Origin: a virus
IMG/VR virus record: IMGVR_UViG_3300030110_003801
Location: 64,734 to 128,733 of that record
Reading direction: 5' to 3' (one strand)
Length of the DNA: 64,000 bases
Positions 7,204 through 61,980 of the stretch are shown here, piece by piece. How positions within the stretch are numbered: the stretch's first letter is position 1; each line of letters starts with the position of its first letter. Below the pieces are notes generated by a model. It saw nothing but the letters and a program-made list of their open reading frames with translations, was not told the DNA's origin and did no database searches. The position numbers and the translations under genes are program-made.

Positions 7204-7261
7204 TATGTAAAAGCCTTTTCAAGTGAGGAATTTCAAAAAAGAAATTCGTTACAATATACAA

Positions 7262-14434: not shown

Positions 14435-14449
14435 CTAAATTTATATACT

Positions 14450-19568: not shown

Positions 19569-20854
19569 TGCTTATGAAAAAGATTAACTCAGAATACTTG
19601 AGAGAAGTATTAAGCGTAAACACATGCTCCAATAGAGAGGAGCAAATGGTTGCTTTCCTTACGCATCAACTATCTGTTTGGGCATCAAACGCAGTAGTCG
19701 AACACACTAAGGACGGCAACATATTAGTAACAAAAAAGCAAACAGATTTCACAGGCTACCTTCCCTGTGTTGTAGCTCACATGGATACAGTACACGACAT
19801 ATACCCGGGCTTTAAAGTTCGTGAGGTAGATGGTAAACTGTTTGCTGTTCAGAACTATGGAAAGAAAAACGTATCTAAGGCGGGTATTGGGGGAGACGAC
19901 AAGGTTGGCGTATTCATAGCCCTAGAAATGCTTAAGACGTTTGACAATATAAAGGTTGCCTTCTTTACTAACGAAGAGATTGGCTGTATTGGTAGTAATG
20001 CGGTGGACTTAGATTGGTTCAATGATACAGCTTTCGTACTACAGGGCGATCGGAGGGGTAACAACGAGATTATTTATTCAGACATGAATGGCGTTGTAGC
20101 TTCAGACGAGTTTATAAATGACACAAAGCCAATAGCTACCAAACACGGCTATGTATTTAGCGACCAAGGTTCTTACACTGACGCAACTACAATGTCGAGT
20201 AACGGGCTGTGTGTATCAGCATACAACATTGCTTGTGGTTACTACAGTGCGCACACTATTGACGAGTACGTAGTAATATCAGATGTAGAAAAATCTTTGA
20301 ATCTGTTTGTTGACATCATTCAACACCTTACCGTTGACAGCAACAAGCAGTACTTACACGAAAACAAGCAAGACTATTACACCAATGGATACTATGACGA
20401 TTGGTATGGAGGGTACTACAATGATAACTTTTCATCATCAGTAGACACAGGGACATCAGTAGTTAAGTTGCCCCTAAAACAAGCAGAGAGAGATTTCCTA
20501 AAAGATACGTATGGAGATTGCGTGAATCATTGTTCAGATGAAGAGCTTATAAATTGGTATAGCGACGACATTGAATTGATGCGAATCGACAACGGAGAGG
20601 ATGTTATAGAATCTGTAAACACCGAGGATGTAGACGGCTTTAAAATAGAAGGTGGGTTCTTTATATATGGAAACCACAAAGTACACTTACCTAGCGAAAT
20701 AAAATGCTGTGTGTGTAGTGGTGGTAAAGCAATCAAGTACTTAGAGGAAGAGCCAAAGAGCCAAGCAGATTATCAATTAGAATACGTGTGTCAGTCTTGT
20801 GGAGAGATACTTGTTGACGAGTACACACTAATGGATTACTTAGACGAATTATAA
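19568..20854 (+). CDS. M20/M28-family Zn metallopeptidase 1 with C-terminal Zn ribbon
   Basis: AHMDTV, GGDDKVG, NEEIG, DRRG, YYSAHT; CCVC...CQSC. Confidence 0.85.
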   Translation: MLMKKINSEYLREVLSVNTCSNREEQMVAFLTHQLSVWASNAVVEHTKDGNILVTKKQTDFTGYLPCVVAHMDTVHDIYPGFKVREVDGKLFAVQNYGKKNVSKAGIGGDDKVGVFIALEMLKTFDNIKVAFFTNEEIGCIGSNAVDLDWFNDTAFVLQGDRRGNNEIIYSDMNGVVASDEFINDTKPIATKHGYVFSDQGSYTDATTMSSNGLCVSAYNIACGYYSAHTIDEYVVISDVEKSLNLFVDIIQHLTVDSNKQYLHENKQDYYTNGYYDDWYGGYYNDNFSSSVDTGTSVVKLPLKQAERDFLKDTYGDCVNHCSDEELINWYSDDIELMRIDNGEDVIESVNTEDVDGFKIEGGFFIYGNHKVHLPSEIKCCVCSGGKAIKYLEEEPKSQADYQLEYVCQSCGEILVDEYTLMDYLDEL

Positions 20855-22590: not shown

Positions 22591-23589
22591 ATGAATTTAG
22601 AATCACACAAAAGAAAAGAACTACAGATACTTTTTGAATTGTTCAAAATAAACTCTCCTTCGGGAAAAGAACAAGCAGTAAAAAAGTACGTGAAAAACAT
22701 TTGCAAGATGTTTAAAATAAATTGCAAGACAGATAAAAAAGGAAATCTATACCTTAAAAAGGGTAGAGGAGTTAGACCTTGTTTGGCGGCTCACTTAGAT
22801 ACCGTGTTTACAGACAAGCCTATCATTACACCTGTTGTTGTAAACAGCACTACTATAATTGGTTACGACACTAAAGGTAATGAGCAATGTGGCTTAGGCG
22901 CAGACGATAAGGTTGGAGTGTTCATTGTGCTTAGAGCTATGCTTAAGTACAAGAACATCAAAGCTGTTTTGACGGTTGAAGAGGAGACGGGTTGCCTTGG
23001 AGCTAAAGAAATAAATTTAGATTTCTTTCAAGATGTCGCATACGTATTACAGGCAGACAGGAAAGGGTATGGAGATTTTGTAACGATAGCTTCAAACTCA
23101 AGATACTCAGACATAGTTTTATGTAGTAAAGAGTTTGAAGATGGGTGTAAACCTATTATATCCAAGTATGGCTTTAAGCAAACAGATGGCGGTTCAACAG
23201 ATGTTGTTATGTTCAAGGAATTAGGTATGGATATATCTGTCGTCAATATGTCTTGTGGATACTATGACGCACACGAAGAGACAGAATACATCAACCCTGA
23301 AGAGGTGCTAAACACACTGAAGATGACCTTTGATGTTATAGATAACTTACCCTTAAAAAGGTATACGCACAAAGCAACACTTAAGAAAACTACCTACAGT
23401 TATAATGGGTATTCAAGCAAGGCTTCATGGGGTACTTCATCATGGGGTAAATCAAGCGGAAACTACAAAAGCTCAAAGGCTAGTAGTGCTAAAAGAAATA
23501 CGTGGACGAACTACCACAGCCTTCAGCAGATATCAAACACTATGAACTCAAAAGTTTCAAGACCAATACCAAAATCACTCCCTTTTTAA
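22591..23589 (+). CDS. M20/M28-family Zn metallopeptidase 2
   Basis: SPSGKE, AHLDTV, GADDKVG, EEETG, DRKG, YYDAHE. Confidence 0.88.
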   Translation: MNLESHKRKELQILFELFKINSPSGKEQAVKKYVKNICKMFKINCKTDKKGNLYLKKGRGVRPCLAAHLDTVFTDKPIITPVVVNSTTIIGYDTKGNEQCGLGADDKVGVFIVLRAMLKYKNIKAVLTVEEETGCLGAKEINLDFFQDVAYVLQADRKGYGDFVTIASNSRYSDIVLCSKEFEDGCKPIISKYGFKQTDGGSTDVVMFKELGMDISVVNMSCGYYDAHEETEYINPEEVLNTLKMTFDVIDNLPLKRYTHKATLKKTTYSYNGYSSKASWGTSSWGKSSGNYKSSKASSAKRNTWTNYHSLQQISNTMNSKVSRPIPKSLPF

Positions 23590-28053: not shown

Positions 28054-28899
28054 ATGGCAATTATTCGTAACCACAAGAACAAGGACTACACTGTTATGTC
28101 CAATAACCACTTGAACAACAACGAGTTAACTTTAAAAGCAAAAGGATTACTTTCTTTTATGCTTAGTAAACCTGACAGTTGGGACTTCTCTGTAAGAGGG
28201 TTGTCGGCTCAACTAAAAGAGGGTAAAGACTGCGTTGCTAGGGCTATAAATGAACTTATAAAACACAGATACGTAGTTCGTGAACAAGAAGTAAGTGATG
28301 AAAGTTTTAAGTTTAGTAAAATTATATACCACGTATACGAAAACCCGTGTCCGGGAAATCGGGATACGGTAAAACCGGATACGGTAAACCGTCCACAAGT
28401 AAATACTAAAGAAGTAAATACTGAAGAAGTAAATACTAAAAAAGAGAAAAATAATATAAAAGAAATTCAAGAAGTTATTTCTTATCTCAACGACACCGTT
28501 GGTAAATCGTTTAAGGCAGACTCAAGGAACTCTTTAAGCTTGATTAACGCAAGACTAAAGGATTACTCTGTTGATGATTTAAAGAAGGTTATTAAGTACA
28601 AATCACAACAATGGTTGAAGGACAAGATTATGTCTCCTTACTTAAGACCGTCTACTTTATTTAACGCTACTAAGTTTGAGAATTATATTAATGAAATTCC
28701 TAAAGACTTTAGCGTGAAGCGTCAAAAGAAAAATAAGTACACAGCTTGGTCTTTAGAGCCTGAAACAATACCATTTGAATTAATGGACGATTGGTTTGGA
28801 ATGACTTACGACCAAATGGTAAAGGAAAAAGGAACTGTTACAACCGAGAATTTAATTATAAGTAAACTAATGGAAGAGAATGCAAAAGGAAACATTTGA
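28054..28899 (+). CDS. Replication initiator (N-terminal HTH plus conserved phage C-terminal domain)
   Basis: YTVMSN..L...LTLKAKGLL..MLSKPDSW; C-terminal YLRPSTLF..KFENYIN; internal iteron-like repeats. Confidence 0.85.
   Translation: MAIIRNHKNKDYTVMSNNHLNNNELTLKAKGLLSFMLSKPDSWDFSVRGLSAQLKEGKDCVARAINELIKHRYVVREQEVSDESFKFSKIIYHVYENPCPGNRDTVKPDTVNRPQVNTKEVNTEEVNTKKEKNNIKEIQEVISYLNDTVGKSFKADSRNSLSLINARLKDYSVDDLKKVIKYKSQQWLKDKIMSPYLRPSTLFNATKFENYINEIPKDFSVKRQKKNKYTAWSLEPETIPFELMDDWFGMTYDQMVKEKGTVTTENLIISKLMEENAKGNI
28362..28437. repeat. Iteron-like 15-bp-period repeats inside the initiator gene (putative ori)
   Basis: GGATACGGTAAA at 28362 and 28377; AAGTAAATACT at 28397, 28412 and 28427. Confidence 0.7.
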
Positions 28900-30793
28900 T
28901 TGGTCTTTGATTGACCAAAGTAAATTAAGAAATTTTAATGGGGAAAACTCTACAACATGTCCTATCTGTAGCCACACTAGAAAGAAAAAAGGAATTAAGT
29001 GTTTGTCGGTAAATACCGCAAAAGGGTTAGCGAAGTGTAATCATTGTGGCTCTGTATCTTTTGACCCTAACAAGAGGGACGACAAAAAAGACGACAGGAT
29101 GCAATTAAGGACTTACAAAACTCCCGATAAAAATAATATAACAGGGCTACCTGACGAGATAGTAAATTGGTTTTCAAAAGAAAGAGGTATCGAACAAAGA
29201 ACTTTAGTTCATTTTGGAATAGGCAAGTCTATACAATGGTTTCCTCAAACAGGAAAAGAAAATATTTGCGTAGCCTTTCCTTACTACAATGGAGACAAGT
29301 TGATAAACTGTAAATACAGGACAAGAGAAAAACATTTTAAACTTACCTCTCAAGCTAAACTCATATTGTATGGACTAAACAACATTAAAGATATTGATGT
29401 AGGTATAATCGTGGAGGGTGAGATTGATGCTTTAGCCGTATGGCAAGCAGGATACCCTAATGTTGTTTCCGTTCCAAATGGAGTGTCAGGACTAAGCGAT
29501 TCAGAAAAAGAAATGTTTAAAGAAACAGGTAAGTTTGATTCAGATAGACCTGTTAACTTGGAGTATATTGACAACTCTTACGATGACATTAAGCACGTAA
29601 AAAAATGGATAATTTGGACAGACACAGACCTACCCGGTCTTAAACTAAGGGATGAGCTAATAAGGAGGTTTGGTCAAGACGATTGCATGATTGTCAATTC
29701 AGGCGATTTAAAGGACGCAAATCAAGTCCTTATAGAGAAAGGTTCACTAGAGGTAGAAAGATTGATTCAGAACGCAAGAGAAGTTCAAATAGAGGGTGTT
29801 GTTGATGTTGATGTCAGACGTGATTATATAAAAAATTTAATTGAGTACGGTATTGAAAAGGGATTGGAAACTCCATTGAGAGGATTCAATAAACATTACA
29901 GACCGAAGTTAGGAGAGTTAGATACTATAGTGGGAGTCGCCAACCACGGTAAATCGTATTACGCTTTGTGGTATGCTGTTTGGACGGCTATGGAATACAG
30001 TTGGAAATGGGCGTTGTACATGCCCGAAAATGCTCCCGCCTCACGAATAGATAAAACTCTAATAGAGATACTAGTAGGAAAATCTTTTGAAAGCATAAAA
30101 TTAAGTGAAGCTGACGCTGCTATAAATTGGATTCATAAATACTTTGTTGTTGTGGATTATCAAGATAAGGTGGTGTCAATGGATGATGTTCTGATTACTT
30201 TTAAATCAGCAGTTAAGAGGCACGGTGTTAATGGTTTCATCGTGGACCCTCTTAACGATTTGTATCACGACTATACTAAAGGAAGTATAGACCAATACTA
30301 TCAAGCTATGTTGTCTAATGTGAGACGGTTTAAAAAAGCTACTAACACAAAGTTTCTTTTAACCGTACATCCTCATACTCACGCAACAAGAGAAAAAGAG
30401 CAACATAATGAGCAAGGAGAAAGACCAAGGGTTATTGAACTACCTGACGCTACGGGTGGTAATATTTTTCATAACAGGACTGATAATGGTATTAGTGTAT
30501 ATCGTAACGTTTGGAGCGATAACCCTGAATATTATCTTACATCTGAGATACATGTTCAAAAGATTAAGTTCCAAGATGAGGTCGGGAGACCAACTCCAAG
30601 ACAAAGACCTATAAAGCTAAAATTTGACCCCGCAACGAGACGATTTAAAGACGAGGACGGTGTAGATGTTCTGAAAGGAAAGTTTGAAAATAAAATCTAC
30701 GAACCTCAACAACTTTTGTCAGACAAAGGAGATGTTGATTGGCTAAAAGGCTCCTCTCTTAAAGGTAAAAATAAAGACGATTTACCTTTTTAA
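28880..30793 (+). CDS. Primase-helicase (T7 gp4/Twinkle-like)
   Basis: Zn finger CPIC...CNHC, TOPRIM IVEGEIDALA and DTDLPG, Walker A GVANHGKS, Walker B FIVDP. Confidence 0.92.
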   Translation: MQKETFDWSLIDQSKLRNFNGENSTTCPICSHTRKKKGIKCLSVNTAKGLAKCNHCGSVSFDPNKRDDKKDDRMQLRTYKTPDKNNITGLPDEIVNWFSKERGIEQRTLVHFGIGKSIQWFPQTGKENICVAFPYYNGDKLINCKYRTREKHFKLTSQAKLILYGLNNIKDIDVGIIVEGEIDALAVWQAGYPNVVSVPNGVSGLSDSEKEMFKETGKFDSDRPVNLEYIDNSYDDIKHVKKWIIWTDTDLPGLKLRDELIRRFGQDDCMIVNSGDLKDANQVLIEKGSLEVERLIQNAREVQIEGVVDVDVRRDYIKNLIEYGIEKGLETPLRGFNKHYRPKLGELDTIVGVANHGKSYYALWYAVWTAMEYSWKWALYMPENAPASRIDKTLIEILVGKSFESIKLSEADAAINWIHKYFVVVDYQDKVVSMDDVLITFKSAVKRHGVNGFIVDPLNDLYHDYTKGSIDQYYQAMLSNVRRFKKATNTKFLLTVHPHTHATREKEQHNEQGERPRVIELPDATGGNIFHNRTDNGISVYRNVWSDNPEYYLTSEIHVQKIKFQDEVGRPTPRQRPIKLKFDPATRRFKDEDGVDVLKGKFENKIYEPQQLLSDKGDVDWLKGSSLKGKNKDDLPF

Positions 30794-30797
30794 AACA

Positions 30798-30805
30798 TAT
30801 ATTTG
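30798..30805 (+). promoter_or_regulatory. Promoter -7 element for the nitrogen operon
   Basis: TATATTTG, 30 nt upstream of the P-II ATG. Confidence 0.6.
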
Positions 30806-30835
30806 TAATCAATTTTTAACCAATAAATAATCGCT

Positions 30836-31174
30836 ATGAAAAAAGTGGAAGCAATTATCAGGAAGAGTGTCTTCGCTGATGTTAAAACCGCACTCATGGA
30901 CGTTAAGGTAACTTTTTTTAGTTATTGGGACGTAACCGGAGTCGGTAATGAAAAGCTCGATATGCGTTATCGAGAAATTGAGTATAGTACTTCTGATATA
31001 CAACGGAGGTATTTAAGTATCATTGTGTCAGATGAGTTTTTAGACAGGACTGTTAAAGCCATACTAGACTCTGCTTATACAGGAGATATTGGAGACGGCA
31101 AAATCTTTGTCAGCGATGTGCAAGAAGCATATCGAATCCGAACAAAAGAAAGAGGAAACCAAACTTTAAACTAA
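30836..31174 (+). CDS. glnK: Nitrogen regulatory protein P-II (GlnK-type, amtB-linked)
   Basis: MKKVEAIIR...TGDIGDGKIFV...RIRT; 112 aa. Confidence 0.95.
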   Translation: MKKVEAIIRKSVFADVKTALMDVKVTFFSYWDVTGVGNEKLDMRYREIEYSTSDIQRRYLSIIVSDEFLDRTVKAILDSAYTGDIGDGKIFVSDVQEAYRIRTKERGNQTLN

Positions 31175-31181
31175 AAGAGAG

Positions 31182-32417
31182 ATGGAAATGTTAACTGTAA
31201 ACAACGTGTGGATGATGGTCTGCACAGGATTGGTGTTCTTTATGCACCTTGGCTTTTCTTTCTTAGAGATTGGATTAACTCGCCAAAAAAACACTATCAA
31301 CATCTTGTTCAAGAATATCTTCATCATCTGTATGGGACTTCTTGTTTACTACATTGGTGGTTTTAATTTAATGTACCCCGGATTTGAAGAAGGGGACTTA
31401 GGTATTCTTAAGTTCGCAGGATTCGGAATCGAGGCTCCTGCAAATGGAATGACTGCCGAGTATGCTTCAGGAGGATATACTTGGTGGACAGACTTCTTGT
31501 TCCAAGGTATGTTCGCAGCAACAGCAGCAACTATTGTAAGTGGAGCTGTGGCTGAACGTATCAAACTAACTAGCTTTATGCTTTTTAGTATTATTTACGT
31601 AGGTCTAGTTTACCCAATAGTAGGCTCTTGGAAATGGGGAGGAGGATTTCTTGACAAATTAGGATTCTACGACTTTGCCGGAAGTACTCTTGTTCACTCA
31701 GTAGGTGGATGGGCAGCACTAGTATCTGTATGGTTATTAGGTCCTAGAATCGGAAAGTATCTTAAAGTAAACGGAAAGTCTTTCCCTATTTTAGGACACA
31801 ACATCCCCTTTGCTACAGCAGGAGTATTAATCTTGTGGCTAGGTTGGTTTGGATTTAACGGTGGTTCAGTACTTAGTGCAGACCCTGCGTTAACCTCTTT
31901 AACTCTTGTCACCACTTGCCTTGCGGCAGCAGCAGGAGGCTTTGGAGCTGCTATTACATCTTATCTTAAGAATAAGACATTAGATTTAACTATGTTTCTT
32001 AATGGAATTTTAGGAGGTCTAGTTGCTATTACGGCAGGTGCTGACCAAATGTCTCCAAATGAATCTGTTGTAGTTGGACTTATAGGAGGTATTATAGTCG
32101 TGTTTGTCGTTTCTCTTTTAGACAAGGCTAAACTAGACGACCCTGTAGGAGCAATAGCAGTACATTTAGGTTGTGGAATATGGGGAACATTAGCGGTAGG
32201 TATTTTTGGAAACCTAGCTAGTGTGAGCCAATTCATATCACAATTCTTTGGAGTTGTAACAATAGCGGGATTCTGTCTAGTAACTTCTTTTATAATTCTG
32301 TTTACCATTAAAAAAACTATGGGACTTAGAGTTAGCAAAAGTGAAGAGCTAGAAGGACTAGATAGTTCAGAACATGGAATGTCATCTTATCCCGACTTCC
32401 GACTTAATCAACATTAA
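31182..32417 (+). CDS. amtB: Ammonium transporter
   Basis: FQGMFAATAATIVSGAVAER, DFAGSTLVH, WFGFNGGS, DDPVGAIAVH; both pore histidines are present. Confidence 0.97.
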   Translation: MEMLTVNNVWMMVCTGLVFFMHLGFSFLEIGLTRQKNTINILFKNIFIICMGLLVYYIGGFNLMYPGFEEGDLGILKFAGFGIEAPANGMTAEYASGGYTWWTDFLFQGMFAATAATIVSGAVAERIKLTSFMLFSIIYVGLVYPIVGSWKWGGGFLDKLGFYDFAGSTLVHSVGGWAALVSVWLLGPRIGKYLKVNGKSFPILGHNIPFATAGVLILWLGWFGFNGGSVLSADPALTSLTLVTTCLAAAAGGFGAAITSYLKNKTLDLTMFLNGILGGLVAITAGADQMSPNESVVVGLIGGIIVVFVVSLLDKAKLDDPVGAIAVHLGCGIWGTLAVGIFGNLASVSQFISQFFGVVTIAGFCLVTSFIILFTIKKTMGLRVSKSEELEGLDSSEHGMSSYPDFRLNQH

Positions 32418-32422
32418 AAATC

Positions 32423-32443
32423 AGGGGGCTAAACACCCCCTTT
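32423..32443 (+). terminator. Weak hairpin/terminator between amtB and the porin gene
   Basis: AGGGGG-CTAAACA-CCCCCT then TT. Confidence 0.45.
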
Positions 32444-32456
32444 AATATTTCATAAA

Positions 32457-33434
32457 ATGAAAAAGATATTTACAATTTTATTGGCACTAAGTGCATCACT
32501 TATTACAGCTCAAGATAGCTTGAAATCAAACCTTTCATTAGAAGGAAGCGCTGATATTTATTACAGAAAAAACCTTAGTACAAACAGCACAGGTGTTGCT
32601 CCTGCTACATCTTTTGCTAACCTAAATGGTTTTAGCTTAGGTATGTTTAATCTTATCGGTTCTTATGACACTAAGAATACAGGATTTGTAGCCGACTTAG
32701 TATTTGGACCTAGAGGAGAAGATGCTGTTTTCTTATCGTCAGGAAACTCTAGCATTGTCAATCAGCTTTACGCTTATTGGGATGTAAGCGATAACCTAAC
32801 TTTAACAATGGGTAACTTCAATACCTTCTTAGGCTATGAGGTTATTAGCCCCGCAGGAAACTTTAACTACTCAACTTCTTACATGTTTAGTTATGGTCCA
32901 TTCTCCCATAGTGGTCTGAAAGCCGACTTCAACCTATCTGAAGATTTTACAGGTATGGTTGCTGTCTTAAATGCTACCGATGAAACAGAGTTTAACTCCA
33001 CCAACTACAATACGCTAGGTGGTCAGTTGGCTTACAAGAGTACGTACTTAAATGCTATATACGGTAAGCAAGACTCAAGCTCTGAGGCTACTTTTCAAAT
33101 TGACTTGACAGCAGGTTATGACTTGTCAGAAAAGTTCTATCTTGGAGTGAACACTACATACAATGAAACAGAAGGTAGTGGTTTTTACGGGGTAGCCTTA
33201 TATCCTCAATATGCAATTCGCAAATTGACAACAGGATTAAGAACAGAGTATTTTAGCGAGTTTACTTCTTCCGGAAATACAGACGTTATCGGATTAACAG
33301 CTACGCTTGATTATTCAGTAGAGAATTTAAACCTAAAATTAGAGTATAGGCTTGATAAGGCTGATGATAAAATCTTTGAAACAAAGGATAATTTATCTAG
33401 CATAGTTCTAGCAGCGGTATATTCTTTTAATTAA
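32457..33434 (+). CDS. Outer-membrane beta-barrel porin (BBP2/DUF1597-like)
   Basis: Signal peptide; GNFNTFLGYEVISP..NFNYSTSYMFSYGPF.H.G; LEYRLD; terminal YSF. Confidence 0.85.
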   Translation: MKKIFTILLALSASLITAQDSLKSNLSLEGSADIYYRKNLSTNSTGVAPATSFANLNGFSLGMFNLIGSYDTKNTGFVADLVFGPRGEDAVFLSSGNSSIVNQLYAYWDVSDNLTLTMGNFNTFLGYEVISPAGNFNYSTSYMFSYGPFSHSGLKADFNLSEDFTGMVAVLNATDETEFNSTNYNTLGGQLAYKSTYLNAIYGKQDSSSEATFQIDLTAGYDLSEKFYLGVNTTYNETEGSGFYGVALYPQYAIRKLTTGLRTEYFSEFTSSGNTDVIGLTATLDYSVENLNLKLEYRLDKADDKIFETKDNLSSIVLAAVYSFN

Positions 33435-33441
33435 TCCAAGA

Positions 33442-33621
33442 ATGCAGGAAATAGAAGAAATAACAGAAGGGTGGTATTTATGCCTTAGAAACGGCAAAGA
33501 ACTACAAATGTATAACGACGGTAATGGTACATGGCACTTATCAGCTCATCACACAGACGATGTAGTGTTCAGTAGAATAGCTAAAAATCCTGACGTGGTA
33601 TTGAAAAAAATATCAAAATGA
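33442..33621 (+). CDS. 59-aa hypothetical protein (not in the ORF track)
   Basis: MQEIEEITEGWY...; ATGA overlap with the next gene. Confidence 0.55.
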   Translation: MQEIEEITEGWYLCLRNGKELQMYNDGNGTWHLSAHHTDDVVFSRIAKNPDVVLKKISK

Positions 33622-33899
33622 TAAAGGATTTAGTACCCGTTAAGTTTATTCCAAAAATTAGAAGGTTGGGTTACATAGGTTGCCCAACCTTTTATAGAGT
33701 ATCTAAGTGGTTTAGAAAAGAGCTAGGATATACATCTTGGATTGAACAGTCAGAAGATACATACATATATAAGATATACTCTATGGGTTCCTTTAGAAGA
33801 CCTAAAGGATACGATTTAAAATATCCACACTGTAAAACCTACGAACAAGCAGAAAAAGAACTTATACGTGAATTAATTAAAATAGCAGAGAAAGTATAA
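33618..33899 (+). CDS. Hypothetical protein
   Basis: PT....KWFR...TYEQAE pattern. Confidence 0.65.
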   Translation: MIKDLVPVKFIPKIRRLGYIGCPTFYRVSKWFRKELGYTSWIEQSEDTYIYKIYSMGSFRRPKGYDLKYPHCKTYEQAEKELIRELIKIAEKV

Positions 33900-33901
33900 A
33901 C

Positions 33902-34381
33902 ATGAAAAAATTAGCAGTTGAAACCCCAAGGGGAAAGCATTTTTTAAAAATACAACAAGACACACTCAAAAGACTTTGTGATTCATACAACATGAAGAAC
34001 TTAGAAATGAAGCATAAAGATGCAAGAATTGATGGTGTGTTGGGAACTCAAGACAATAAAGCCGTGTGTGTTTATGAGTTCAAATCAAGGTCTAAAGATA
34101 TAGGCTACTACAAAAAAAACGGACTTTTTATTTCTCAATATAAAATCAAAATGGGTACTAAGTATTCTGCCCTTTTTGGAGTGCCTCTTGTGTTCTATTT
34201 TTATTTATACGAACAAGACGAAATGTACAGCATAATAATGTCTGACGACAGAGGCAAAATAATAATAGACCTTCCAAAACCTGTTTACAAAACAACTCAG
34301 TATAACTGTAATAGAGAAGATGTAAAGCAAGATTTAGTTGTCTACTTACCCGTGGATAAATTCAAACTTTTAAAATTATAA
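33902..34381 (+). CDS. PD-(D/E)xK nuclease-like protein
   Basis: RIDG...YEFKSR. Confidence 0.65.
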   Translation: MKKLAVETPRGKHFLKIQQDTLKRLCDSYNMKNLEMKHKDARIDGVLGTQDNKAVCVYEFKSRSKDIGYYKKNGLFISQYKIKMGTKYSALFGVPLVFYFYLYEQDEMYSIIMSDDRGKIIIDLPKPVYKTTQYNCNREDVKQDLVVYLPVDKFKLLKL

Positions 34382-34383
34382 GC

Positions 34384-34611
34384 ATGGACTACGCAAAAGG
34401 AAACGGAGATTACAGACCGTTCAAGTTTACATTTGAAGACGGTCTTATTATTGAAATAATTCACGATGTTCACAAGCACGGATTAAGCATATTAGAATTA
34501 TTTGAAGAGTGGTATAGCATAACTGAAGAAAGAACTGTAGAAAGCTTTTGTGAATATATAATGACACAACATAAGAAATGTTTGGCTTTCCCAAAAGCAA
34601 CTTTAACTTAA
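34384..34611 (+). CDS. Hypothetical protein
   Basis: 75-aa ORF. Confidence 0.6.
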   Translation: MDYAKGNGDYRPFKFTFEDGLIIEIIHDVHKHGLSILELFEEWYSITEERTVESFCEYIMTQHKKCLAFPKATLT

Positions 34612-34618
34612 ATAAATT

Positions 34619-34870
34619 ATGGAAAAATTAAAACAATTAGGGTTTGAAATAATAGTAACCCCTTGGAAAGAAACTTTGTGGCAATTAAAAGAGGACGACT
34701 TCTTTTTGTGTTACAATGAAAAAACAAAACGATTAGACTTATCTCAAGTAGAAGATGATTACTTAATGTTTAAGAGTGTAAAAATTCAGAACGTTTCTAT
34801 CGAGAAATTAAAGACTCTTATTTCAATACTTAAACAAGATGAAAGACAACGGACAGTTCAAGAAGGGTGA
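34619..34870 (+). CDS. Hypothetical protein
   Basis: 83-aa ORF. Confidence 0.6.
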   Translation: MEKLKQLGFEIIVTPWKETLWQLKEDDFFLCYNEKTKRLDLSQVEDDYLMFKSVKIQNVSIEKLKTLISILKQDERQRTVQEG

Positions 34871-35195
34871 TGAACCTTGGAACAAGAATATGAAAGGCAT
34901 TCACTTGTCGCCTCACAGCGAGTTCAAGTCAGGTGAACAACACACAGGTAAAAACCACCCCTCTTGGAAAGGAGGTGTACAGAAAATAAAAGACGACTGT
35001 ACTTATTTGTGGAAAGACAGTAATGTAAGAGTAAGAAGACCCCGGTCGGTGTATGAAGAAAATTTTGGTCCAATACCTCAAGGATATGTTATTAGACATA
35101 TAGATGGAGATAAGAACAACGACCACCCTTCAAACCTACAGGCAATTAGTAGAGCAGAAAACATGAAACTAAACAGTAATAAAAATGGAAAATAA
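34839..35195 (+). CDS. HNH homing endonuclease-like protein
   Basis: FKKG..PWNK, HPSWKGG, HIDGDKNNDHPSNL. Confidence 0.85.
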   Translation: MKDNGQFKKGDEPWNKNMKGIHLSPHSEFKSGEQHTGKNHPSWKGGVQKIKDDCTYLWKDSNVRVRRPRSVYEENFGPIPQGYVIRHIDGDKNNDHPSNLQAISRAENMKLNSNKNGK

Positions 35196-35472
35196 CATAA
35201 GATTTGAAGCTACAGAAAGCTTAAGAATGTCAAACAGTTTTGGAACTGTAAGAGAAGAAGAAAACATCAAGCTAGATGTTAGTATAAACATAAAAGACGA
35301 AAAAGGAAGTTTTGAAATTTATGACATCAAAACAGGAGGAGAAGATTGGTACGCTGAAGGAGGTCTATGGTTTAAAGGAAAAGACTTAGTTGATTATGAC
35401 GGAGTTTTTGCACTTCCTAAATGTATAGAGTCAAAACTAACTGAATTAGAATACAACCTAGACAACTTATAA
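35185..35472 (+). CDS. Hypothetical protein
   Basis: GGLWF....LVDYDGVFALP. Confidence 0.65.
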   Translation: MENNIRFEATESLRMSNSFGTVREEENIKLDVSINIKDEKGSFEIYDIKTGGEDWYAEGGLWFKGKDLVDYDGVFALPKCIESKLTELEYNLDNL

Positions 35473-35475
35473 GAT

Positions 35476-35610
35476 ATGAAACCATTTTGGAAAAAACCCA
35501 AGTTTGTGATTTGGCACATCAAAAACGACTTATTAATACAAGCAGTACTAAACTGTATTTTACTATTGTTTATAATAGTAATATGGATTTATTGTGAAAG
35601 CATTAGATAG
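35476..35610 (+). CDS. 44-aa membrane microprotein (not in the ORF track)
   Basis: MKPFWKKPK...AVLNCILLLFIIVIWIY. Confidence 0.45.
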   Translation: MKPFWKKPKFVIWHIKNDLLIQAVLNCILLLFIIVIWIYCESIR

Positions 35611-35614
35611 ACCA

Positions 35615-35632
35615 AAGGGGCATAAGCCCCTT
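35615..35632. terminator. Terminator at the convergence of the two transcription units
   Basis: AAGGGGC-ATAA-GCCCCTT. Confidence 0.7.
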
Positions 35633-35656
35633 ATAATCTTCTAGTCGTCTAGTACT

Positions 35657-35788
35657 TTACTTAGACAACTTTCCTCTAGGGATTTGCTTAACAACAGGAG
35701 TAGAGCAACCTTTTCCTTTAATGTGTTGCGACTTTCCTATTGACCCTTTAGGACCAACATTTGAGCTTCCGCTTCCGTACTTTGCCAT
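35657..35788 (-). CDS. 43-aa basic Gly/Lys/Ser-rich microprotein (not in the ORF track)
   Basis: MAKYGSGSSNVGPKGSIGKSQHIKGKGCSTPVVKQIPRGKLSK; TTGTATA motif upstream and terminator downstream. Confidence 0.6.
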   Translation of the reverse strand: MAKYGSGSSNVGPKGSIGKSQHIKGKGCSTPVVKQIPRGKLSK

Positions 35789-35850
35789 TGGATATAGTTT
35801 TAAGTTATACAATTAAAAATAAGGATTTTCCTTATTACATTCAAGCGTTA

Positions 35851-38800
35851 TTATCTTTCAATAGGAGCAGTGTATTCTTCAACAGTTCCATTCATTATAT
35901 GATATATAGTCTTGTTTCTAAATCTTAATTTTTTAAAATTCTGAAATAATTCTTGTTGACTTACACCTGTATTTAAAGCCGCCCTATACGACCTAGAAAA
36001 TCGTTCATAAGCCTCCTTCAATTTCTTATTAACTTGCTCCTCACTACCTTCTCCGTCTTCCCGTCCAAGAGAATAAGCCATGTCAATATCTGCTTTAAAG
36101 TCTCTAGCCCTAAAGTACACAGACGTTTTTGGTTTTACAGTATATGCTCTAAAACCAAATAAACTCCCGTTAACATCTGCAACGCTAGGTCCTCTTTTGT
36201 AATCACTATCCTCATCATCAGCAAAAGCTTTTTCCATGTCTTGCGCCCACTTAACATATCCGTTTCTGTATATTAAGTTGTACCCAAACACACCTAAGTC
36301 CGTCATTTTACCTAAAGGAGTATCAGCCTCATTATAAATTCTTCTATCCTTTGTTCCGGGCTTAACGTTATACGCAAAACCATAAGCAAGTTGACCTGCA
36401 AAAGAGTTGCTTATGAAAGGTTCTGCAAAAGTACTAGCCCCTTCTTTAAACCCGTCATTGAAAATAGCTTTAACTATCTCTTTTCCAAAACCAAATGAGT
36501 CATATCGAGACAAGTCAAGATACCTCATATCTCCATCTTCTCCATCTTCAGGCGCTCCAAGAAATACCCAATTAGTATGTCTTGACCAATCAGCAGCAAG
36601 TTCTCTGTAGTCATCCTCTTCCTCTTCATCAATGTTCAACAAAGCTGCACTTGCGCTTGTAGCCGAAAGAAAGGCTGCATTAGCAATTAAATACCCCGAC
36701 ATTCTTCTAATCCCTATTTTTTTAATACCGGGATTAGGACTTGCCATTTCAGCAATAGCCTGAATAGGTATATTAATCATACAACGTATAGACTCAGCAG
36801 GGAAAGCAACAAAAGTACCAAATAAAGGAACTCTTCTTAAAGCCTGAACTATACCCGGTAACTTACTGTAAGTAGGCACAACGTTAGTAGATATCTTAGA
36901 GGCAGTGTCTACTATTGTGTTATAGTTGTCTGTCTTAATAAACTCGTCCCATGCTTTTGCGTGGTCTCCATTGTTATCTTTTACTAATTTTTGAAATAAT
37001 GGGTCTGCTCTCGTGTATGAGTTTATTTCGGAAACAGCCATCATAAACTTAGGTAAATCATCACCCATAGCATAAATCCATTGATGAGCTTTTTTAAATC
37101 CTTGAATACCTCCACCTATAATCTGTGTGGTTTTTGATGCGGCTCCAAACTTATCTATAAGCTTAGAAGTGATAGACTCAGGATTACCCGAAACCACCAT
37201 AGCTTTAAACGCAGCCTGAAGCTCTTTTAATTGAACAGATTGGTCAATAACACCATTTTCTATAAGTTTTTTATAAAGCCAAGCTGTGTGATTTGTTTCA
37301 GGGCTAACTCCTGCGTTGGCAAAAGAACCTCCTTTGGTTGCTATTTTCACAAAATCCATCATGCTGTAAGAGGCGGCACCACCACCACGACCCTTAGAAA
37401 AAACATTAAAAATATTTCCATTGTATACAGATACTAAAGACGCAGAGGCTAGGTTAGCAACAATAGAACCCGGAGAAAAAACTGTTTTTGAAAGTTTAGC
37501 TGCGGCATTTAACCTAGTTAGTAGTCTTAAAATATTGTGGCTAGTATTACCGTTACTTGCCGCTTCAAGCCTATGAAACTCACTTAAAACTGATGCCATT
37601 TCAGGAGTAGTGTAAAGCTTATATTTATTAGGTCCTTCTCTAAGACCTGTTGCTTCATTAATGTTTTGCCCTTTACCTAAAGGATTATTTGTATAATTTG
37701 AAGAAGAAGGAACTTCAACCGTTAACCTTCCTTTTTTTCTTGTGCTAAAAACTCCTGCTTTTATACCCGCATCCCTAACTGCCTCTAACATCTTATGATT
37801 TTCAATCATTTCTGTTAATTTAGTAGTTGTGTTTATAAAGTTAAAAGAAGGGTTTTTGATTTCTCCTAACAAAGCTTTTATTTCAGGAGCTATCTCAAAA
37901 TCAGATTTTTTTAAGTTGTCGTACTCTTTTTGAAGCTCTGCTGCTTTAGCCGAATCCCCTTTTAATTTAGCTTTATCTATAGCGTCTTTTAATTCTTTTT
38001 GTTTTTTCTTAAACTTTTTTGTTTTTAAAGGAGCTTTGAATACGCTAGTGTCTATACCGCCAAAAGTTTTATTCGTAACAATAACACCCGACCTTTTAGG
38101 ATTCATTATTAATTTATCTATAACTCCTCTTGCGTCTTCATTACTTATACCTTGAGCCATAACGTAAGAAACAGCAGCGTCGTAAACTTTTTTATCTACA
38201 GTGTTAACCCAATCTTTGTTCATGTGAACAGAGTATCTAGTGTTTAGATACACTCCTAGGTTTTCTTGAATAACACCTTTCATTGACTCGGTAACAGCTC
38301 CTGAGTCTATTAACTCCTTAGACAAGCTGTCTATCGTTTGTCTCATTTCTCCAACAACGTCAAAAAGCTCGCTACTAGGCATATCCTTTAACACCTTTAA
38401 GGCATCAGTATCACCCCTTAAAGCGTTATTAACAACTTCTAAGTCTGAATTAGAAGGTACTCTTCCATACGTTTTTCTAAGTATCTTTTCAAAGTTTTTT
38501 TGAATCCCCGATATTTGATTCATTCTATTTTTTATGGTGTTCATTCGTTTTTCACCAAGTTCATGCACAAAGTCAGGAGCAAGCTTCTTATTAGTTAGAA
38601 GGTTTCTAAATTGGTCAGCCCACCATCTTTTTGATGTAACTCTATCTATAACACCTTCAATACCTGTAGACTGAATCCTGTTATATCCAACATTCTGCTC
38701 AAGAGCGTCAGCAAGGAATTGAACTCCATCAGCAGTACTTACAACAGGTATTCCTGACTTTTTAGCGTCAGCCGCAGCGGTAGGAGATGACGAGTGTGTA

Positions 38801-41800
38801 GGAGGAGGATTAAGACCGTTTATAACGTTGTTTGTTATTCGGATATTGTTAGCGGCAGAAAATGCTTTTTGAAGTTTTTCTGCAACATCATTATCTGAAA
38901 TTGTTTCATTTACAGCTTCAGAAAAAGCTTCTTGAGAAACCTCAACAGAAGCCGCAGTAGCAGCTACTCTCTCTAAAGCAAAAACAGCAGCGCTTTCTTT
39001 CATTTGCTCGTCAGCCTGACTTTGCACGTCTGATTCAGACACGTTAACTAAAACATCACCAACCTGACCAATAACCTCTTTATCTTGAAGAGATTCTCTA
39101 GCCATATTTACAGCATACTCGGGCGTAAAATTACCGTCATTAACTGTTTGAGCTAACTCTGCATCTGCTTCAGGAATTCCTTCAAATGAATAAACCCCGT
39201 CTTTTTTATATTTAAAATAGCTTTCGTTTCCTTTAGTTATTTTTGGAGCAACATTACTTATACCTCTAATTATACCCTCTTTTTCAACTTCAGAAAAAAC
39301 GTTTAAGCCTTTTTCATCGTTAAACACAAGGTTAAAAACATTTTCTCTTAAGGACTTTGAGTTGCCTATTTCCGAATCTGAAGCATACCTTAAATTGTTT
39401 TCTTTTATAGCGTTAGCAATATCAATAACATCTTGAGCAACTTTCTTTTCTTCTGCTGTGTATTTTCTTGTGAGACCGCCTTTTTTATCATTTAAGATGT
39501 CTCTTGCTTGTTTTATAGTTTTGTTTGCCTCTGACTTTACCCTTTTTTTATCCTTTAATGCAGTTACAGTGTTTCCAAGCAAAGACATAATCTTTGAAGC
39601 TTGTTCGGCTGAGTAACCTTTTTGTAAAATATCATTAAACAAACTTTCTCCGTCTTCATCAAGAACGTTTTTCAAGTCTATTTCCCCATCAGAAGTTGAT
39701 TTTGTGTACTCAACATATTTATTACCCGACTCATTAGCTATCTCCTCTACCTGCTCATCTGATAATTGGTCATAAACACTTCTAATATCTTGTATTTTTT
39801 TAGAGTCATTATCATATCTAGCTTGATGTATTTCTTCTACTGAAAAATCTCTTTGACCTGAAGCCTCCGCCTCTGAATCCGCTAATGCGGAACTCATAGC
39901 TTCAGACATATTAGTGTTATAATCCGCAACAAATTGATTTAAAATAGACTTTTGAGCCGAACTAAGCTCTCTTCTAAGTTTAGCAACCTTTTTGGAATAA
40001 GCATCACCAACGTTTGTATCAGCAACACCAAAACTAGCTCCTAAAATAAATGATGAAACAGTAAGTTTTAACGCTTCGTCAGCATCTCCATAAGTAGCTT
40101 TAAATTGTTCCCAAAAAGGCTCGTTGTTGTTTTGCCACATTTGAGCTATTTGTTGAAAATTCTCTTCCCCTACTTCACCAATACCTTTACCACCCATTCT
40201 ACGAAGGGTTGCTCCGTGTTTAGATATAAGCTTAAATACATCATCAGCTTTGTCCCCAAAAAGGTTTTTAATTACGCCACCAACAGACTCCATTTTTGGC
40301 AACATTTTACTAAGTAGTTTTTCACCAAAATAACCAAACAGACCTGTACCAAAGTTTAACTCATCCATATCTTTAGGGAATATGGTTCCGGCTACTTGAT
40401 AAGTAAGACCTGTTTCAATCATTCCCGCCCCTATGGTAGAAGTACCTGCTCTAGTAAGAATTCTTTTAAAGAAATTTTGTTTAGAAAGTTTTTCTGCAAA
40501 AGCAGGAGACTTCATAAGCCTCTTCATCGCTTTCCTTTTTGTGTTAGAAATCCTTACTAACCGATTACCCCACGAAGTACCTTTAAGAATGGCTTTAGAA
40601 CCTTTACCCCCGGCTATTATGTCAACCATTATACCCAAGCTGTTACCCACAGCGTCTTGCCAAAATTCTGCATCATCTAATCCTGCCGATTTAAACTCTT
40701 GTTTTTCAAAGTCATAAACCTTGCTCATCTGTTCTTGAACACCTTCAGGCATTACATTAATGTCAGAAACATCAGCTTCCCTCGCAAGACTCATAACTTC
40801 TCTAGCGTCTTGAAAATCAGTGCCTAAACCAAGAGAAATTGCAGGCTGTACAGCTCTTGCGACAGTGGTAGCTACATTTGTTACAGCACGAGAAGGTCTT
40901 TCTAAATTGCTTTGAGGGATTACATCTAAAGAGTTAAAGTTTAAAAGAGCTAAGTCAGAGTAGTCCCTTAAAACCCTACCAATATCTCTCATTATTTGGT
41001 CTTCTTCTTCACCGGGGAAAAACGCCTCGCTAAAGGTGTCAAAAAACATAGCGCCTCCTTTAAACAAATCAAAACCTTCAGGGTCTCCTTCCCCTTCCTC
41101 CAAGTAAGGATACCTTCTGTCCATCCAATCTTTAAATTGAGCGTACTTGACATGCCACAAGTAGTTGAATCTTTCTGCGTTATTTAAACCTTCAGGAAAA
41201 TCTCTGTCTTCAAAATAAGTTAATTCGTTAAGTTTTTGAGTAGCCTCTTCTCTTCTTATTTCGTCAGGCTTTGCAAAAACAGTCTCTTCCTTTGTGCTTT
41301 TTATATAAGCCTTGTTTAAATAATTGTAGGCATCTAATTTTTTTGTGTCAGGTTTACGTGAATCGCCTTCCGTTGTAGAGCCTTGACCCATTTGGGAATA
41401 AATATCCTCTGTATACTTAGTAGATTCTGTTAAAAGCTCATAAACCTCTTTTATGTCTTTATTTCTCTCTGTTTCTAAATTTTCTGTGTAGTCGGTTAGG
41501 TCAATTCTTCCTTCTTTATCTATTAAACCTTTTTTCTTTAACCGGTCTATTAATGGATAAAAATACGCATCTCCTTCTCCTAAATTGTGAGATGCGGATA
41601 TAATATCGCTTGTAGTCGTGCTTAATTCCTGAAGAGATAATTTTTCTCTTTCATAAGAACTCATATCCTCCCTACTAAACGAAACATCACCTTCTTCCGC
41701 TATAGCGTTAATAATCTCAATAGGAACATCTTCTCCATCAACCAACTTTACGGCTTTAGCCAACACAGCAGACTCTACACGCCCCTCGTCTAAAGCTTTT

Positions 41801-43032
41801 TTAAACAAAGGAAGAGTACCTCCAATTTCTTTATACCTTTCAAATCTTAAGTCTGTTATTTTCTTTTCGTTTTCAGCAAGCTCTCTTTTATACACAGAAA
41901 CTTGTCTTTCGTATTCTGCATCTAAATACTTTGTGTCTTCTGAGCTTTCATCATCCGGGTTAACATCACCTTTTGTTGTTTCTAGTAAATAACCACCCTT
42001 CCTTTTTTGATAAGCGTCTTCATATATTTGAATGTCTTCTTTTATCCTTCTGTTTTCGGACATAAGACGAGATTCTAGCAACCTACTAGGGTCATCTTTG
42101 TAATAGGTTTCAGAAAATGCAGCGTTTTGGTCATTAAGAAACGATTTGGTTCCATTCAAATAGTTACTTTTGTCGGTAATATATCCACGCTCTTTCGCTT
42201 TTTTAATAATGCCTCCTGACCAATAATTAAAAGATTTTACGGCTAATGAAGGGTCTGTAACAAAATCAGACTTTAACTTTTCTTGAAAATACCTTTCAGC
42301 CCTATTCTTTCCCGAGTAAAGCTTATCTATTTCTTTTAGTTTTTCAACTGACTCAAAATTGTTTGCTTTTGCAACCTTTTCAAGCTCTTCTTGAGACATT
42401 CCGTCTAGGTTGAAAAAACTTTTTTCTCCCTCAGCCAAAAGCTCTTGATATCTAGCATCTGTTGATTTTAAAAGCTCCTCATGGGTCTTCATGTTCTCAT
42501 ATACAGAGTCTTCAAAAAGTTCATCATCGTCTTTAAGAATCCTATGACCCGACTCGTCAAAAGAGCTATCATTTTCTAAGTAATCATCATCAGGCATCGG
42601 GTTTAAAACACTCTCAAAATCAGAATATGTTCCTAAATCAAAGTTATCTTTTAACGCATTATAAAGGTTAAGCCTTTCTTTTTTACCTCGTAAAGCGTCT
42701 AAATACGAATCATAGTCGCCTAAATCATATTTACCTTTTGCAGCGTCATATAGATTTTTCGCAGCATCCGTATTTAAATCCTCTAAATTAGCCCTCTTGT
42801 TTTCTATACTGTCAATATCAAGACCTTCTTGCTCCTTGAGCTGTTCTTCAGGCTGTTCTTCAGGCTGTTCTTCAGTTTGCTCTTCAGGCTGTTCTTCAGT
42901 TTGCTCTTCAGTTTGCTCTTCAGTCTGTCCTTTTAGTTGCTCAACTAACTCCTCTACTGATATATTGTTTTCTTCTGCATACTTTAAAAGCTCTTCTTGA
43001 GACATTCCGTCTAAAATACCCGTTTGTATCAT
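35851..43032 (-). CDS. Giant virion ejection/cargo protein (large polyvalent-like)
   Basis: 2393 aa, last of the genes after the tail; EEQP/T repeats; C-terminal P.FGTFVAFPAE and YLDLSRY segments. Confidence 0.65.
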   Translation of the reverse strand: MIQTGILDGMSQEELLKYAEENNISVEELVEQLKGQTEEQTEEQTEEQPEEQTEEQPEEQPEEQLKEQEGLDIDSIENKRANLEDLNTDAAKNLYDAAKGKYDLGDYDSYLDALRGKKERLNLYNALKDNFDLGTYSDFESVLNPMPDDDYLENDSSFDESGHRILKDDDELFEDSVYENMKTHEELLKSTDARYQELLAEGEKSFFNLDGMSQEELEKVAKANNFESVEKLKEIDKLYSGKNRAERYFQEKLKSDFVTDPSLAVKSFNYWSGGIIKKAKERGYITDKSNYLNGTKSFLNDQNAAFSETYYKDDPSRLLESRLMSENRRIKEDIQIYEDAYQKRKGGYLLETTKGDVNPDDESSEDTKYLDAEYERQVSVYKRELAENEKKITDLRFERYKEIGGTLPLFKKALDEGRVESAVLAKAVKLVDGEDVPIEIINAIAEEGDVSFSREDMSSYEREKLSLQELSTTTSDIISASHNLGEGDAYFYPLIDRLKKKGLIDKEGRIDLTDYTENLETERNKDIKEVYELLTESTKYTEDIYSQMGQGSTTEGDSRKPDTKKLDAYNYLNKAYIKSTKEETVFAKPDEIRREEATQKLNELTYFEDRDFPEGLNNAERFNYLWHVKYAQFKDWMDRRYPYLEEGEGDPEGFDLFKGGAMFFDTFSEAFFPGEEEDQIMRDIGRVLRDYSDLALLNFNSLDVIPQSNLERPSRAVTNVATTVARAVQPAISLGLGTDFQDAREVMSLAREADVSDINVMPEGVQEQMSKVYDFEKQEFKSAGLDDAEFWQDAVGNSLGIMVDIIAGGKGSKAILKGTSWGNRLVRISNTKRKAMKRLMKSPAFAEKLSKQNFFKRILTRAGTSTIGAGMIETGLTYQVAGTIFPKDMDELNFGTGLFGYFGEKLLSKMLPKMESVGGVIKNLFGDKADDVFKLISKHGATLRRMGGKGIGEVGEENFQQIAQMWQNNNEPFWEQFKATYGDADEALKLTVSSFILGASFGVADTNVGDAYSKKVAKLRRELSSAQKSILNQFVADYNTNMSEAMSSALADSEAEASGQRDFSVEEIHQARYDNDSKKIQDIRSVYDQLSDEQVEEIANESGNKYVEYTKSTSDGEIDLKNVLDEDGESLFNDILQKGYSAEQASKIMSLLGNTVTALKDKKRVKSEANKTIKQARDILNDKKGGLTRKYTAEEKKVAQDVIDIANAIKENNLRYASDSEIGNSKSLRENVFNLVFNDEKGLNVFSEVEKEGIIRGISNVAPKITKGNESYFKYKKDGVYSFEGIPEADAELAQTVNDGNFTPEYAVNMARESLQDKEVIGQVGDVLVNVSESDVQSQADEQMKESAAVFALERVAATAASVEVSQEAFSEAVNETISDNDVAEKLQKAFSAANNIRITNNVINGLNPPPTHSSSPTAAADAKKSGIPVVSTADGVQFLADALEQNVGYNRIQSTGIEGVIDRVTSKRWWADQFRNLLTNKKLAPDFVHELGEKRMNTIKNRMNQISGIQKNFEKILRKTYGRVPSNSDLEVVNNALRGDTDALKVLKDMPSSELFDVVGEMRQTIDSLSKELIDSGAVTESMKGVIQENLGVYLNTRYSVHMNKDWVNTVDKKVYDAAVSYVMAQGISNEDARGVIDKLIMNPKRSGVIVTNKTFGGIDTSVFKAPLKTKKFKKKQKELKDAIDKAKLKGDSAKAAELQKEYDNLKKSDFEIAPEIKALLGEIKNPSFNFINTTTKLTEMIENHKMLEAVRDAGIKAGVFSTRKKGRLTVEVPSSSNYTNNPLGKGQNINEATGLREGPNKYKLYTTPEMASVLSEFHRLEAASNGNTSHNILRLLTRLNAAAKLSKTVFSPGSIVANLASASLVSVYNGNIFNVFSKGRGGGAASYSMMDFVKIATKGGSFANAGVSPETNHTAWLYKKLIENGVIDQSVQLKELQAAFKAMVVSGNPESITSKLIDKFGAASKTTQIIGGGIQGFKKAHQWIYAMGDDLPKFMMAVSEINSYTRADPLFQKLVKDNNGDHAKAWDEFIKTDNYNTIVDTASKISTNVVPTYSKLPGIVQALRRVPLFGTFVAFPAESIRCMINIPIQAIAEMASPNPGIKKIGIRRMSGYLIANAAFLSATSASAALLNIDEEEEDDYRELAADWSRHTNWVFLGAPEDGEDGDMRYLDLSRYDSFGFGKEIVKAIFNDGFKEGASTFAEPFISNSFAGQLAYGFAYNVKPGTKDRRIYNEADTPLGKMTDLGVFGYNLIYRNGYVKWAQDMEKAFADDEDSDYKRGPSVADVNGSLFGFRAYTVKPKTSVYFRARDFKADIDMAYSLGREDGEGSEEQVNKKLKEAYERFSRSYRAALNTGVSQQELFQNFKKLRFRNKTIYHIMNGTVEEYTAPIER

Positions 43033-61024: not shown

Positions 61025-61038
61025 TTGTTCTTGTATAA

Positions 61039-61979: not shown

Positions 61980-61980
61980 T

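Follow-up and report, generated by a model that had tools for sequence, protein, structure and literature searches.

We analysed a 64,000-nucleotide (nt) stretch of viral DNA, hereafter the window, which is the second half (positions 64,734 to 128,733) of the 128,733-nt IMG/VR record IMGVR_UViG_3300030110_003801, and identified within it a cassette of three intact open reading frames (ORFs) lying on the same strand between 30836 and 33434 (+). The ORFs encode an amt-linked, GlnK-like P-II signal protein of 112 amino acids (aa) (30836-31174, +), an Amt-family ammonium channel of 411 aa (31182-32417, +) that starts after a gap of 7 nt, and a BBP2/OmpL-like outer-membrane porin of 325 aa (32457-33434, +). 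All three matched their families above the curated cut-offs: PF00543 at 75.1 bits against 25 (6.1e-21; profile positions 1-102 of 102), PF00909 at 383 bits against 23.2 (1.7e-114; 1-399 of 399) and PF07642 at 211 bits against 26.2 (3.6e-62; 2-339 of 339). An original prediction for this DNA had described intact P-II, AmtB and porin genes, and in this it was correct.

Candidate regulatory elements accompany the three genes. The TATATTTG box at 30798-30805 (+), 38 nt upstream of the P-II ATG, is a candidate Bacteroidota-type -7 promoter element, a label that depends on TAnnTTTG, which we take to be the Bacteroidota -7 consensus. A TAnnTTTG box lies 32-42 nt upstream of P-II in 20 of 25 phage copies of the cassette (described below), and at a matching distance in those host operons that have P-II as their first gene. 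The window contains the motif no more often than expected (85 matches against 85.07), and a sigma-70 consensus scan was uninformative (26 sites against 25.0 expected). The promoter element claimed in the original prediction stands as a conserved candidate box, the motif itself occurring at chance level. Alignment of the phage copies delimits a conserved leader at 30806-30835 (+), in which ...AATTTTTAAC...AATAAATAATCGCT-ATG is near-identical among copies despite unrelated upstream genes. An Rfam scan of 30000-34500 (E up to 1) returned zero RNA families, and a riboswitch in the leader was thus not found. In the gap between amt and the porin gene, a terminator-like scan match at 32423-32441 (+) consists of a G+C-rich hairpin followed by a T-rich tract, a putative terminator or attenuator that is kept in most phage copies, its stems showing compensatory changes.

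The Amt protein scored 404 bits against TIGR00836 (cut-off 343.3) and fell outside the TIGR03644 'marine subtype' (426.9 bits against a cut-off of 514); its matches in the PDB include 8qj3_A (4.6e-76), 6eu6_A and 2b2f_A. Five pore motifs, FLFQ (105), W.WGGG (149), DFAGSTLVH (164-172), WFGFNGGS (222) and AVHLGCG (326), are present in all 25 phage copies and align to 2b2f, 6eu6 and 8qj3; presumably they supply the twin His, Phe gate, Trp/Ser recruitment site and conserved Asp of the Amt pore. The porin has an N-terminal hydrophobic helix (residues 2-18), a signal peptide. Its AF2 model (pLDDT 86.3, pTM 0.80) has ~16 strands and gave Foldseek matches to the trimeric OmpF-type porins OmpF, BpsOmp38 and OmpM1 (TM 0.60-0.68, E ~1e-10), confidently predicting a 16-strand barrel with the fold of general diffusion porins. 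The net charge of the porin is -17 in the window copy and ranges from -9 to -20, an acidity common among porins and hence unspecific for cation selectivity.

The cassette is embedded among phage genes, as the original prediction had it. Upstream are a replication initiator (phrog_428) and, immediately to the left, a phage primase/helicase at 28880-30793 (+) with Toprim domains (phrog_239, 1.6e-64), while small ORFs, a PDDEXK_14 nuclease and an HNH endonuclease follow the porin gene. The same genome encodes a portal protein (7e-94), a large terminase (2e-59), a tail-collar protein and, at 47025-52136 (-), a 1703-aa protein with a crAss muzzle domain (PF25731, 2.1e-64), adjoined at 35851-43032 (-) by a 2393-aa protein with zero Pfam families and one weak PHROG match (3e-05). 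This phage is possibly a small crAss-like relative with marine flavobacteria as hosts. Other features of the window include a single tRNA-Glu (TTC) gene at 14363-14435 (+) and, in the early region, two paralogous peptidase-like genes at 19568-20854 and 22591-23589 (+), which have phrog_4191 and M20/M28/M42-type matches and are 33% identical to one another.

The viral record joins two phage genomes

Comparison of the full record (G000) with itself separated two halves, A and B, that are syntenic and deeply diverged (portal 21%, terminase 23% and primase 33% identical), each with its own hallmark gene set and its own copy of the cassette. Between the two cassettes, identity is 80% for P-II, 91% for Amt and 75% for the porin. 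A second viral record (G001; 63,652 nt, with an estimated completeness of 92%) agrees with half A at 100% identity along 12,195 nt and reads directly from the end of half A into its start. The start, the end and the middle join of G000 (~63600-63646) all fall in a ~43-nt stretch that is identical in both phages and sits within a conserved tail-fibre-like gene. From these observations and the differing site avoidance of the two halves (see below), we conclude that assembly joined two circularly permuted genomes, A of ~63.65 kb and B of ~65.1 kb, into G000 as a figure of eight, and that the window is nearly all of phage B. The join is ~32 kb away from the cassette and leaves it unaffected. The chimeric assembly against which the original prediction had cautioned is thus present in the record, but it joins phage to phage and does not extend to the cassette.

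Besides the cassette, only three to four tail-fibre-like genes are highly similar between the two phages (74-87% at the amino acid level; G000 60645-63861 against 125772-128733), which suggests that A and B infect the same host and exchange host-interaction modules.

Related viral loci with and without the cassette

A scan of viral contigs with the Amt protein gave 105 candidates and 98 relatives, 80 of which were kept. At least 27 other viral loci (L003-L030 without L027) encode an Amt 82-94% identical to that of the window, and the cassette is present in them as far as each contig reaches: 23 have the three genes in the same order, two start inside amt and two end inside it. The flanking gene sets differ among cassette carriers, at least eight having been counted. 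The insertion site is marked by a phage backbone gene encoding a protein of 93-94 aa, located in the window at 33618-33899 (+), which belongs to no known family (no Pfam or PHROG match). It lies 3′ of the porin gene in 20 of the 25 loci that reach past the porin, before P-II in two, and is absent in three. The protein has invariant W, Y-K-I-Y, P and C positions and was found by scan in 29 viral loci, including two (L182 and L185) that have 5 kb of upstream sequence and are cassette-free. L185 is 87% identical to the cassette carrier L014 over 4.9 kb and has 123 nt in place of 2,680 nt, while L182 is 83% identical to L022 with 552 nt in place of 2,727 nt. Closely related phages therefore differ in having the cassette, which makes it an accessory block. 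As a fourth cassette member the 93-94-aa neighbour was rejected, since L182 and L185 carry it without the cassette.

A number of further observations concern these relatives. In one viral locus (L028) amt, at ~5990-7226, is split into ORFs of 156 aa and 258 aa and the P-II match is shortened, which may represent either a decaying copy or a sequencing error. Some 50 further viral contigs (L031-L082) encode Amt proteins 41-49% identical to that of the window with no similar P-II or porin adjoining, and are either separate viral amt lineages or miscalled host contigs. The HNH endonuclease gene of the window (34839-35195, +), 1.4 kb 3′ of the cassette, has a 71%-identical copy 3′ of the cassette in L018 (4994-5314), the flanks of which are otherwise unlike those of the window phage despite this common gene. 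A nucleotide search of the 8 kb around the cassette against GenBank phages gave zero matches.

Junction support, residence in the phage lineage and selection

Contigs from public runs span both cassette junctions, a point that the original prediction had marked for checking. The left junction is covered by a 954-nt contig spanning 30460-31412 (X3, another sample), and the right junction by a 582-nt contig spanning 33174-33755 (X4, another sample from another study) and by a 10,020-nt contig that spans 32867-37000 with 0 differences (X1, which may be the source sample). A 20,758-nt contig of X1 ends at 30840. Logan contigs of the likely source run are interrupted within the cassette, and among the matches listed 30841-31204, a stretch of the P-II gene, is covered only by variant contigs; because several cassette variants co-occur in one sample, we did not read these breaks as absence.

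Counts of short sites bear on how long the cassette has been carried. Over the 64-kb window phage B contains one CCAG/CTGG against ~250 expected, no GGCC against 58-71, two GATC against 147-214 and three CGCG against 39, whereas phage A has 274 CCAG/CTGG and 97 GATC, and no GCGC against 38 expected. CCAG is non-palindromic, and we know of no enzyme with exactly that 4-nt site. The cassette in B follows its genome, with no CCAG/CTGG (~13 expected), no GATC and no GGCC; by comparison, CCAG/CTGG occurs 7-19 times per cassette in 19 other phage copies and 18-44 times in seven host copies. At 26 alignment columns where at least four other phage copies have a site, B is site-free, and in 18 of them the amino acids are kept. 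This B-like purge is incompatible with a host fragment that was mis-joined recently.

Purifying selection on each of the three genes is strong. Between A and B, at a dS of 1.1-1.9, the ratio of nonsynonymous to synonymous substitution rates (dN/dS) is lowest in Amt (0.056), followed by the porin (0.085) and P-II (0.15); when all phage pairs are taken together, the medians are 0.059 for Amt, 0.097 for the porin and 0.085 for P-II. The purge of sites and the near-saturated dS between phage copies support a long residence of the cassette in the phage lineage. The original prediction had proposed as much from the CCAG/CTGG avoidance that it saw by eye in both cassette and genome, an avoidance that the counts confirm. 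It had also held that the cassette is not a host flank, for which the phage hallmark genes, the other viral loci, the bridged junctions and the B-type purge all argue.

Flavobacterial origin of the cassette

The nearest cellular Amt proteins all belong to Flavobacteriaceae, with identities reaching at most 76%; the corresponding maxima among hosts are 73% for P-II and ~60% for the porin. A quick IQ-TREE analysis of 113 rows placed the 25 Amts of phage cassettes in one clade (SH-aLRT 99), itself nested in a clade that also holds 40 Flavobacteriales rows (support 100). Not included in this tree were L007, which is the same as half A; L135, whose match contains a stop; L026, L028 and L030, which were too short; and 44 of the 52 distant viral Amts. 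The viral Amt of L027, which is 58% identical and has no P-II or porin beside it, falls outside the phage-cassette clade. Likewise, the 26 porins from phages group in a single clade (support 100) among amt-linked porins of Bacteroidota. The flavobacterial link drawn in the original prediction, which had suggested phylogeny as a check, is thus borne out. The donor genus cannot be named, since the branch leading to the phage copies lies outside the clade of sampled hosts, a clade with a support of only 80.

Gene order varies among hosts, the porin coming first in 15 loci of the porin tree and the order P-II, Amt, porin being found in seven flavobacterial loci. The Amt and porin trees disagree on the nearest relatives of B, which suggests recombination inside the cassette. 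The simplest reading of these relationships would be one capture of the whole unit, promoter included, from Flavobacteriales.

Sequence traits of the P-II protein

The best PDB match of the P-II protein is 8wm7_E (1e-19). It retains the ATP-binding B-loop TGDIGDGKIF and the C-terminal RIRT, and residues G86, D87, G88, K89, F91, R100 and R102 are invariant among 37 sequences. Tyr45-Arg46 of the T-loop is present in all 25 phage copies, and Tyr50 in 22 of them including that of the window (His in two, Phe in one). The modifiable Tyr of the T-loop is, we presume, Y51 in E. coli numbering. Compared with solved P-II proteins, the T-loop is shorter by one residue, a trait common to the hosts. Phage and host copies differ in three traits. 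Residues 42-44 read G-H-V in 31 of 40 hosts, against one of 25 phage copies. Directly before the conserved T-loop Tyr, all 40 hosts have S/A/T, whereas 19 of the 25 phage copies have Glu. The phage copies all end in RGNQTLN, a C-terminus seen in none of the 40 hosts. A phosphomimetic reading of the phage Glu was dropped, the alignment showing that Glu is canonical there and that the host Ser is the departure.

Control of the viral P-II through uridylylation of the T-loop Tyr has been proposed (Gazitua et al., ISME J, PMC8115048, 2020). None of five flavobacterial genomes gave a GlnD match that passed the cut-off (the best reached 27.6 bits against 519), whereas control genomes did. The uridylylation model is therefore probably inapplicable here and effector-driven gating likelier. 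A predicted 1:1 complex of Amt and P-II from their own alignments (score 0.02, mark 0.32) was counted neither for nor against binding.

Proposed function and alternative explanations

We consider it likely that the cassette is a host-derived auxiliary module, captured as a unit from Flavobacteriales and long kept among marine flavobacterial phages of one lineage, that serves regulated ammonium uptake across two membranes during infection. The module, comprising promoter, P-II, Amt, hairpin and porin, lies among the replication genes of a phage of ~65 kb that encodes a crAss-type muzzle protein, and its promoter box is of host type. On infection, phage porin would be added to the outer membrane and phage Amt trimers to the inner membrane, and the additional porin and Amt would raise ammonium influx and so supply the making of phage nucleotides and proteins. 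P-II, expressed along with them, would gate the channel by inserting its T-loop, with the conserved Tyr-Arg, into the cytoplasmic exit, probably through binding of ATP, ADP and 2-oxoglutarate and not through uridylylation, as the host family appears to be without GlnD. The cassette would thereby, as the original prediction proposed, relieve nitrogen limitation of infected cells.

Several points weigh against this interpretation. None of the listed runs holding the stretch is an RNA run. An Amt protein search of GenBank phages gave 22 records, all below 60% identity (best 44.5%), and no cultured relative. The split amt of L028 indicates that cassette copies can decay, and the hairpin between amt and the porin gene may restrict porin expression. 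The P-II protein has N, E and R for R38, Q39 and K58 of the aligned cyanobacterial P-II, positions that we take to be effector-binding, and it falls far under the NCBIfam equivalog cut-offs (NF008111, 74.2 against 202; NF007946, 66.1 against 181). By its scores it is a divergent flavobacterial subtype and not an equivalog of E. coli GlnB or GlnK. Host P-II has the same traits, so the departures do not point to decay; given those at the effector site, the gating chemistry nevertheless cannot be assumed. The GlnD result comes from five genomes only. Finally, according to PMC8115048, the substrate of the porin is not established.

A further proposal, which we regard as possible and somewhat unlikely, is that a module with its own promoter and leader has been repeatedly gained, lost or exchanged among at least eight flavobacterial phage backbones at a fixed site by the 93-94-aa gene, its P-II having been retuned, through a new T-loop apex and the C-terminus seen only in phages, so that gating is taken off host nitrogen status and the channel is left open or under phage control. 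If true, natural siblings that lack the cassette, as L182 and L185 do, would serve as ready-made controls for the value of viral ammonium uptake at sea.

Alternatively, P-II could be the main payload, rewiring host nitrogen signalling through competition for targets or through open channels, with Amt and porin as linked passengers. Competition with host P-II is an idea raised in PMC8115048, and the phage-specific T-loop apex (42-44 and the residue before the Tyr) and C-terminus would fit such a role. Passengers would however decay, whereas all three genes are found together in 23 of the 23 loci spanning the unit and selection on Amt and porin (dN/dS between A and B of 0.056 and 0.085) is as strong as or stronger than that on P-II (0.15); we therefore hold this explanation to be improbable.

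Still less probable is a different use of the envelope proteins, whether superinfection exclusion, receptor masking or a porin admitting some solute other than ammonium. The uncertain porin substrate noted above and the predicted general diffusion fold would both accommodate it, and phages A and B have a highly conserved tail-fibre-like gene in common, implying the same host surface. However, exclusion-type domains were not found, and the porin is linked to P-II and Amt in genomes of Flavobacteriaceae and Cyclobacteriaceae, in either order, which argues for a shared nitrogen role. An artefact, in which host DNA had been assembled by mistake into a phage contig or a contig of the host had been taken for viral, was tested and rejected: G000 is truly a mis-join of two genomes and contigs of the likely source run do break inside the cassette, but the mis-join is phage to phage at the ~43-nt identical stretch ~32 kb away, the cassette lacks CCAG/CTGG, GATC and GGCC like phage B and unlike every host copy examined, and at least 27 other viral contigs and the bridging contigs from other samples agree.

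Comparison with known systems and implications

The auxiliary module for ammonium uptake that we favour belongs to a kind of system that is already known. A viral P-II adjoining amt was first noted by Roux et al. (2016, bioRxiv 10.1101/053090), and a viral glnK-amtB-ompL unit of flavobacterial origin, with promoter and terminator, has been described for the 'PII-1' clade (PMC8115048). The original prediction rightly stated that viral amt and P-II genes were known, and understated the case in that a complete viral P-II/Amt/OmpL unit had been published in that paper. As described there, the PII-1 unit resembles the cassette in the order P-II, Amt, OmpL-like porin, in the phage hallmark genes on the contig, in a predicted promoter before P-II and a terminator after amt, in the retained T-loop Tyr, and in nearest cellular relatives from Flavobacteriales (~70% identity for P-II); the likeness is one of gene content, order and description and not of direct sequence comparison. 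The PII-1 contigs are given as 13-35 kb fragments without a reference genome, whereas the window is a near-complete ~65-kb genome. Cassette-less siblings, purging of restriction sites and the many flank sets, all found here, are not mentioned in the accessible portion of that account. Our literature search, with supplementary contig lists outside the comparison, found no report closer than PMC8115048; a further candidate paper, PMC12379486, proved to be unrelated.

Among cellular systems, the chromosomal operons of Flavobacteriaceae (for example L087, and L102, L108 and L113 from Robiginitalea, Sediminicola and Salegentibacter) encode the same three families, in the same order in seven loci, with the same placement of the promoter box where P-II is first and a P-II with N38, E39, R57 and the one-residue-shorter T-loop. 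The amt-porin spacer is ~200 nt in these operons against 42 nt in the phage, and the phage copies differ in forming their own clades with their own T-loop apex and C-terminus. The GlnK-AmtB complex of E. coli (PDB 2nuu, 2ns1) similarly has an Amt gene beside a P-II with T-loop Arg and Tyr, and its chains were recovered as PDB homologues (AmtB 2nuu_A, 1.3e-39; GlnK 1gnk_A/2nuu, 9.8e-16). The phage proteins are nevertheless distant from it (NCBIfam equivalog scores of 168 against 657 for AmtB and 66 against 181 for GlnK), and unlike the E. coli system they are accompanied by a third, outer-membrane component and come from a host family in which GlnD was not found above cut-off in the five genomes. 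For viral transporters more widely, an Amt of an Ostreococcus tauri virus, reportedly described by Monier et al. in 2017, is said to be host-derived, with ammonium uptake shown experimentally; that system is reportedly a single Amt gene without P-II or porin in a virus of a eukaryotic alga.

What is new here is the recognition of G000 as two joined phages, the cassette-less close relatives at the same site and the GlnD result bearing on the uridylylation model. The public 128.7-kb record, being two genomes end to end, would mislead analyses of genome size, completeness and gene copy number. For a cassette earlier known from fragments, our analysis provides the context of a near-complete genome, gives evidence that residence has been long and selection strong, and supplies natural sibling phages without the cassette for comparison as well as a probable correction to the assumed control by uridylylation. 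If the cassette functions as proposed, viral nutrient uptake would alter the draw of infected cells on scarce ocean nitrogen, and would thus bear on models of the nitrogen cycle.

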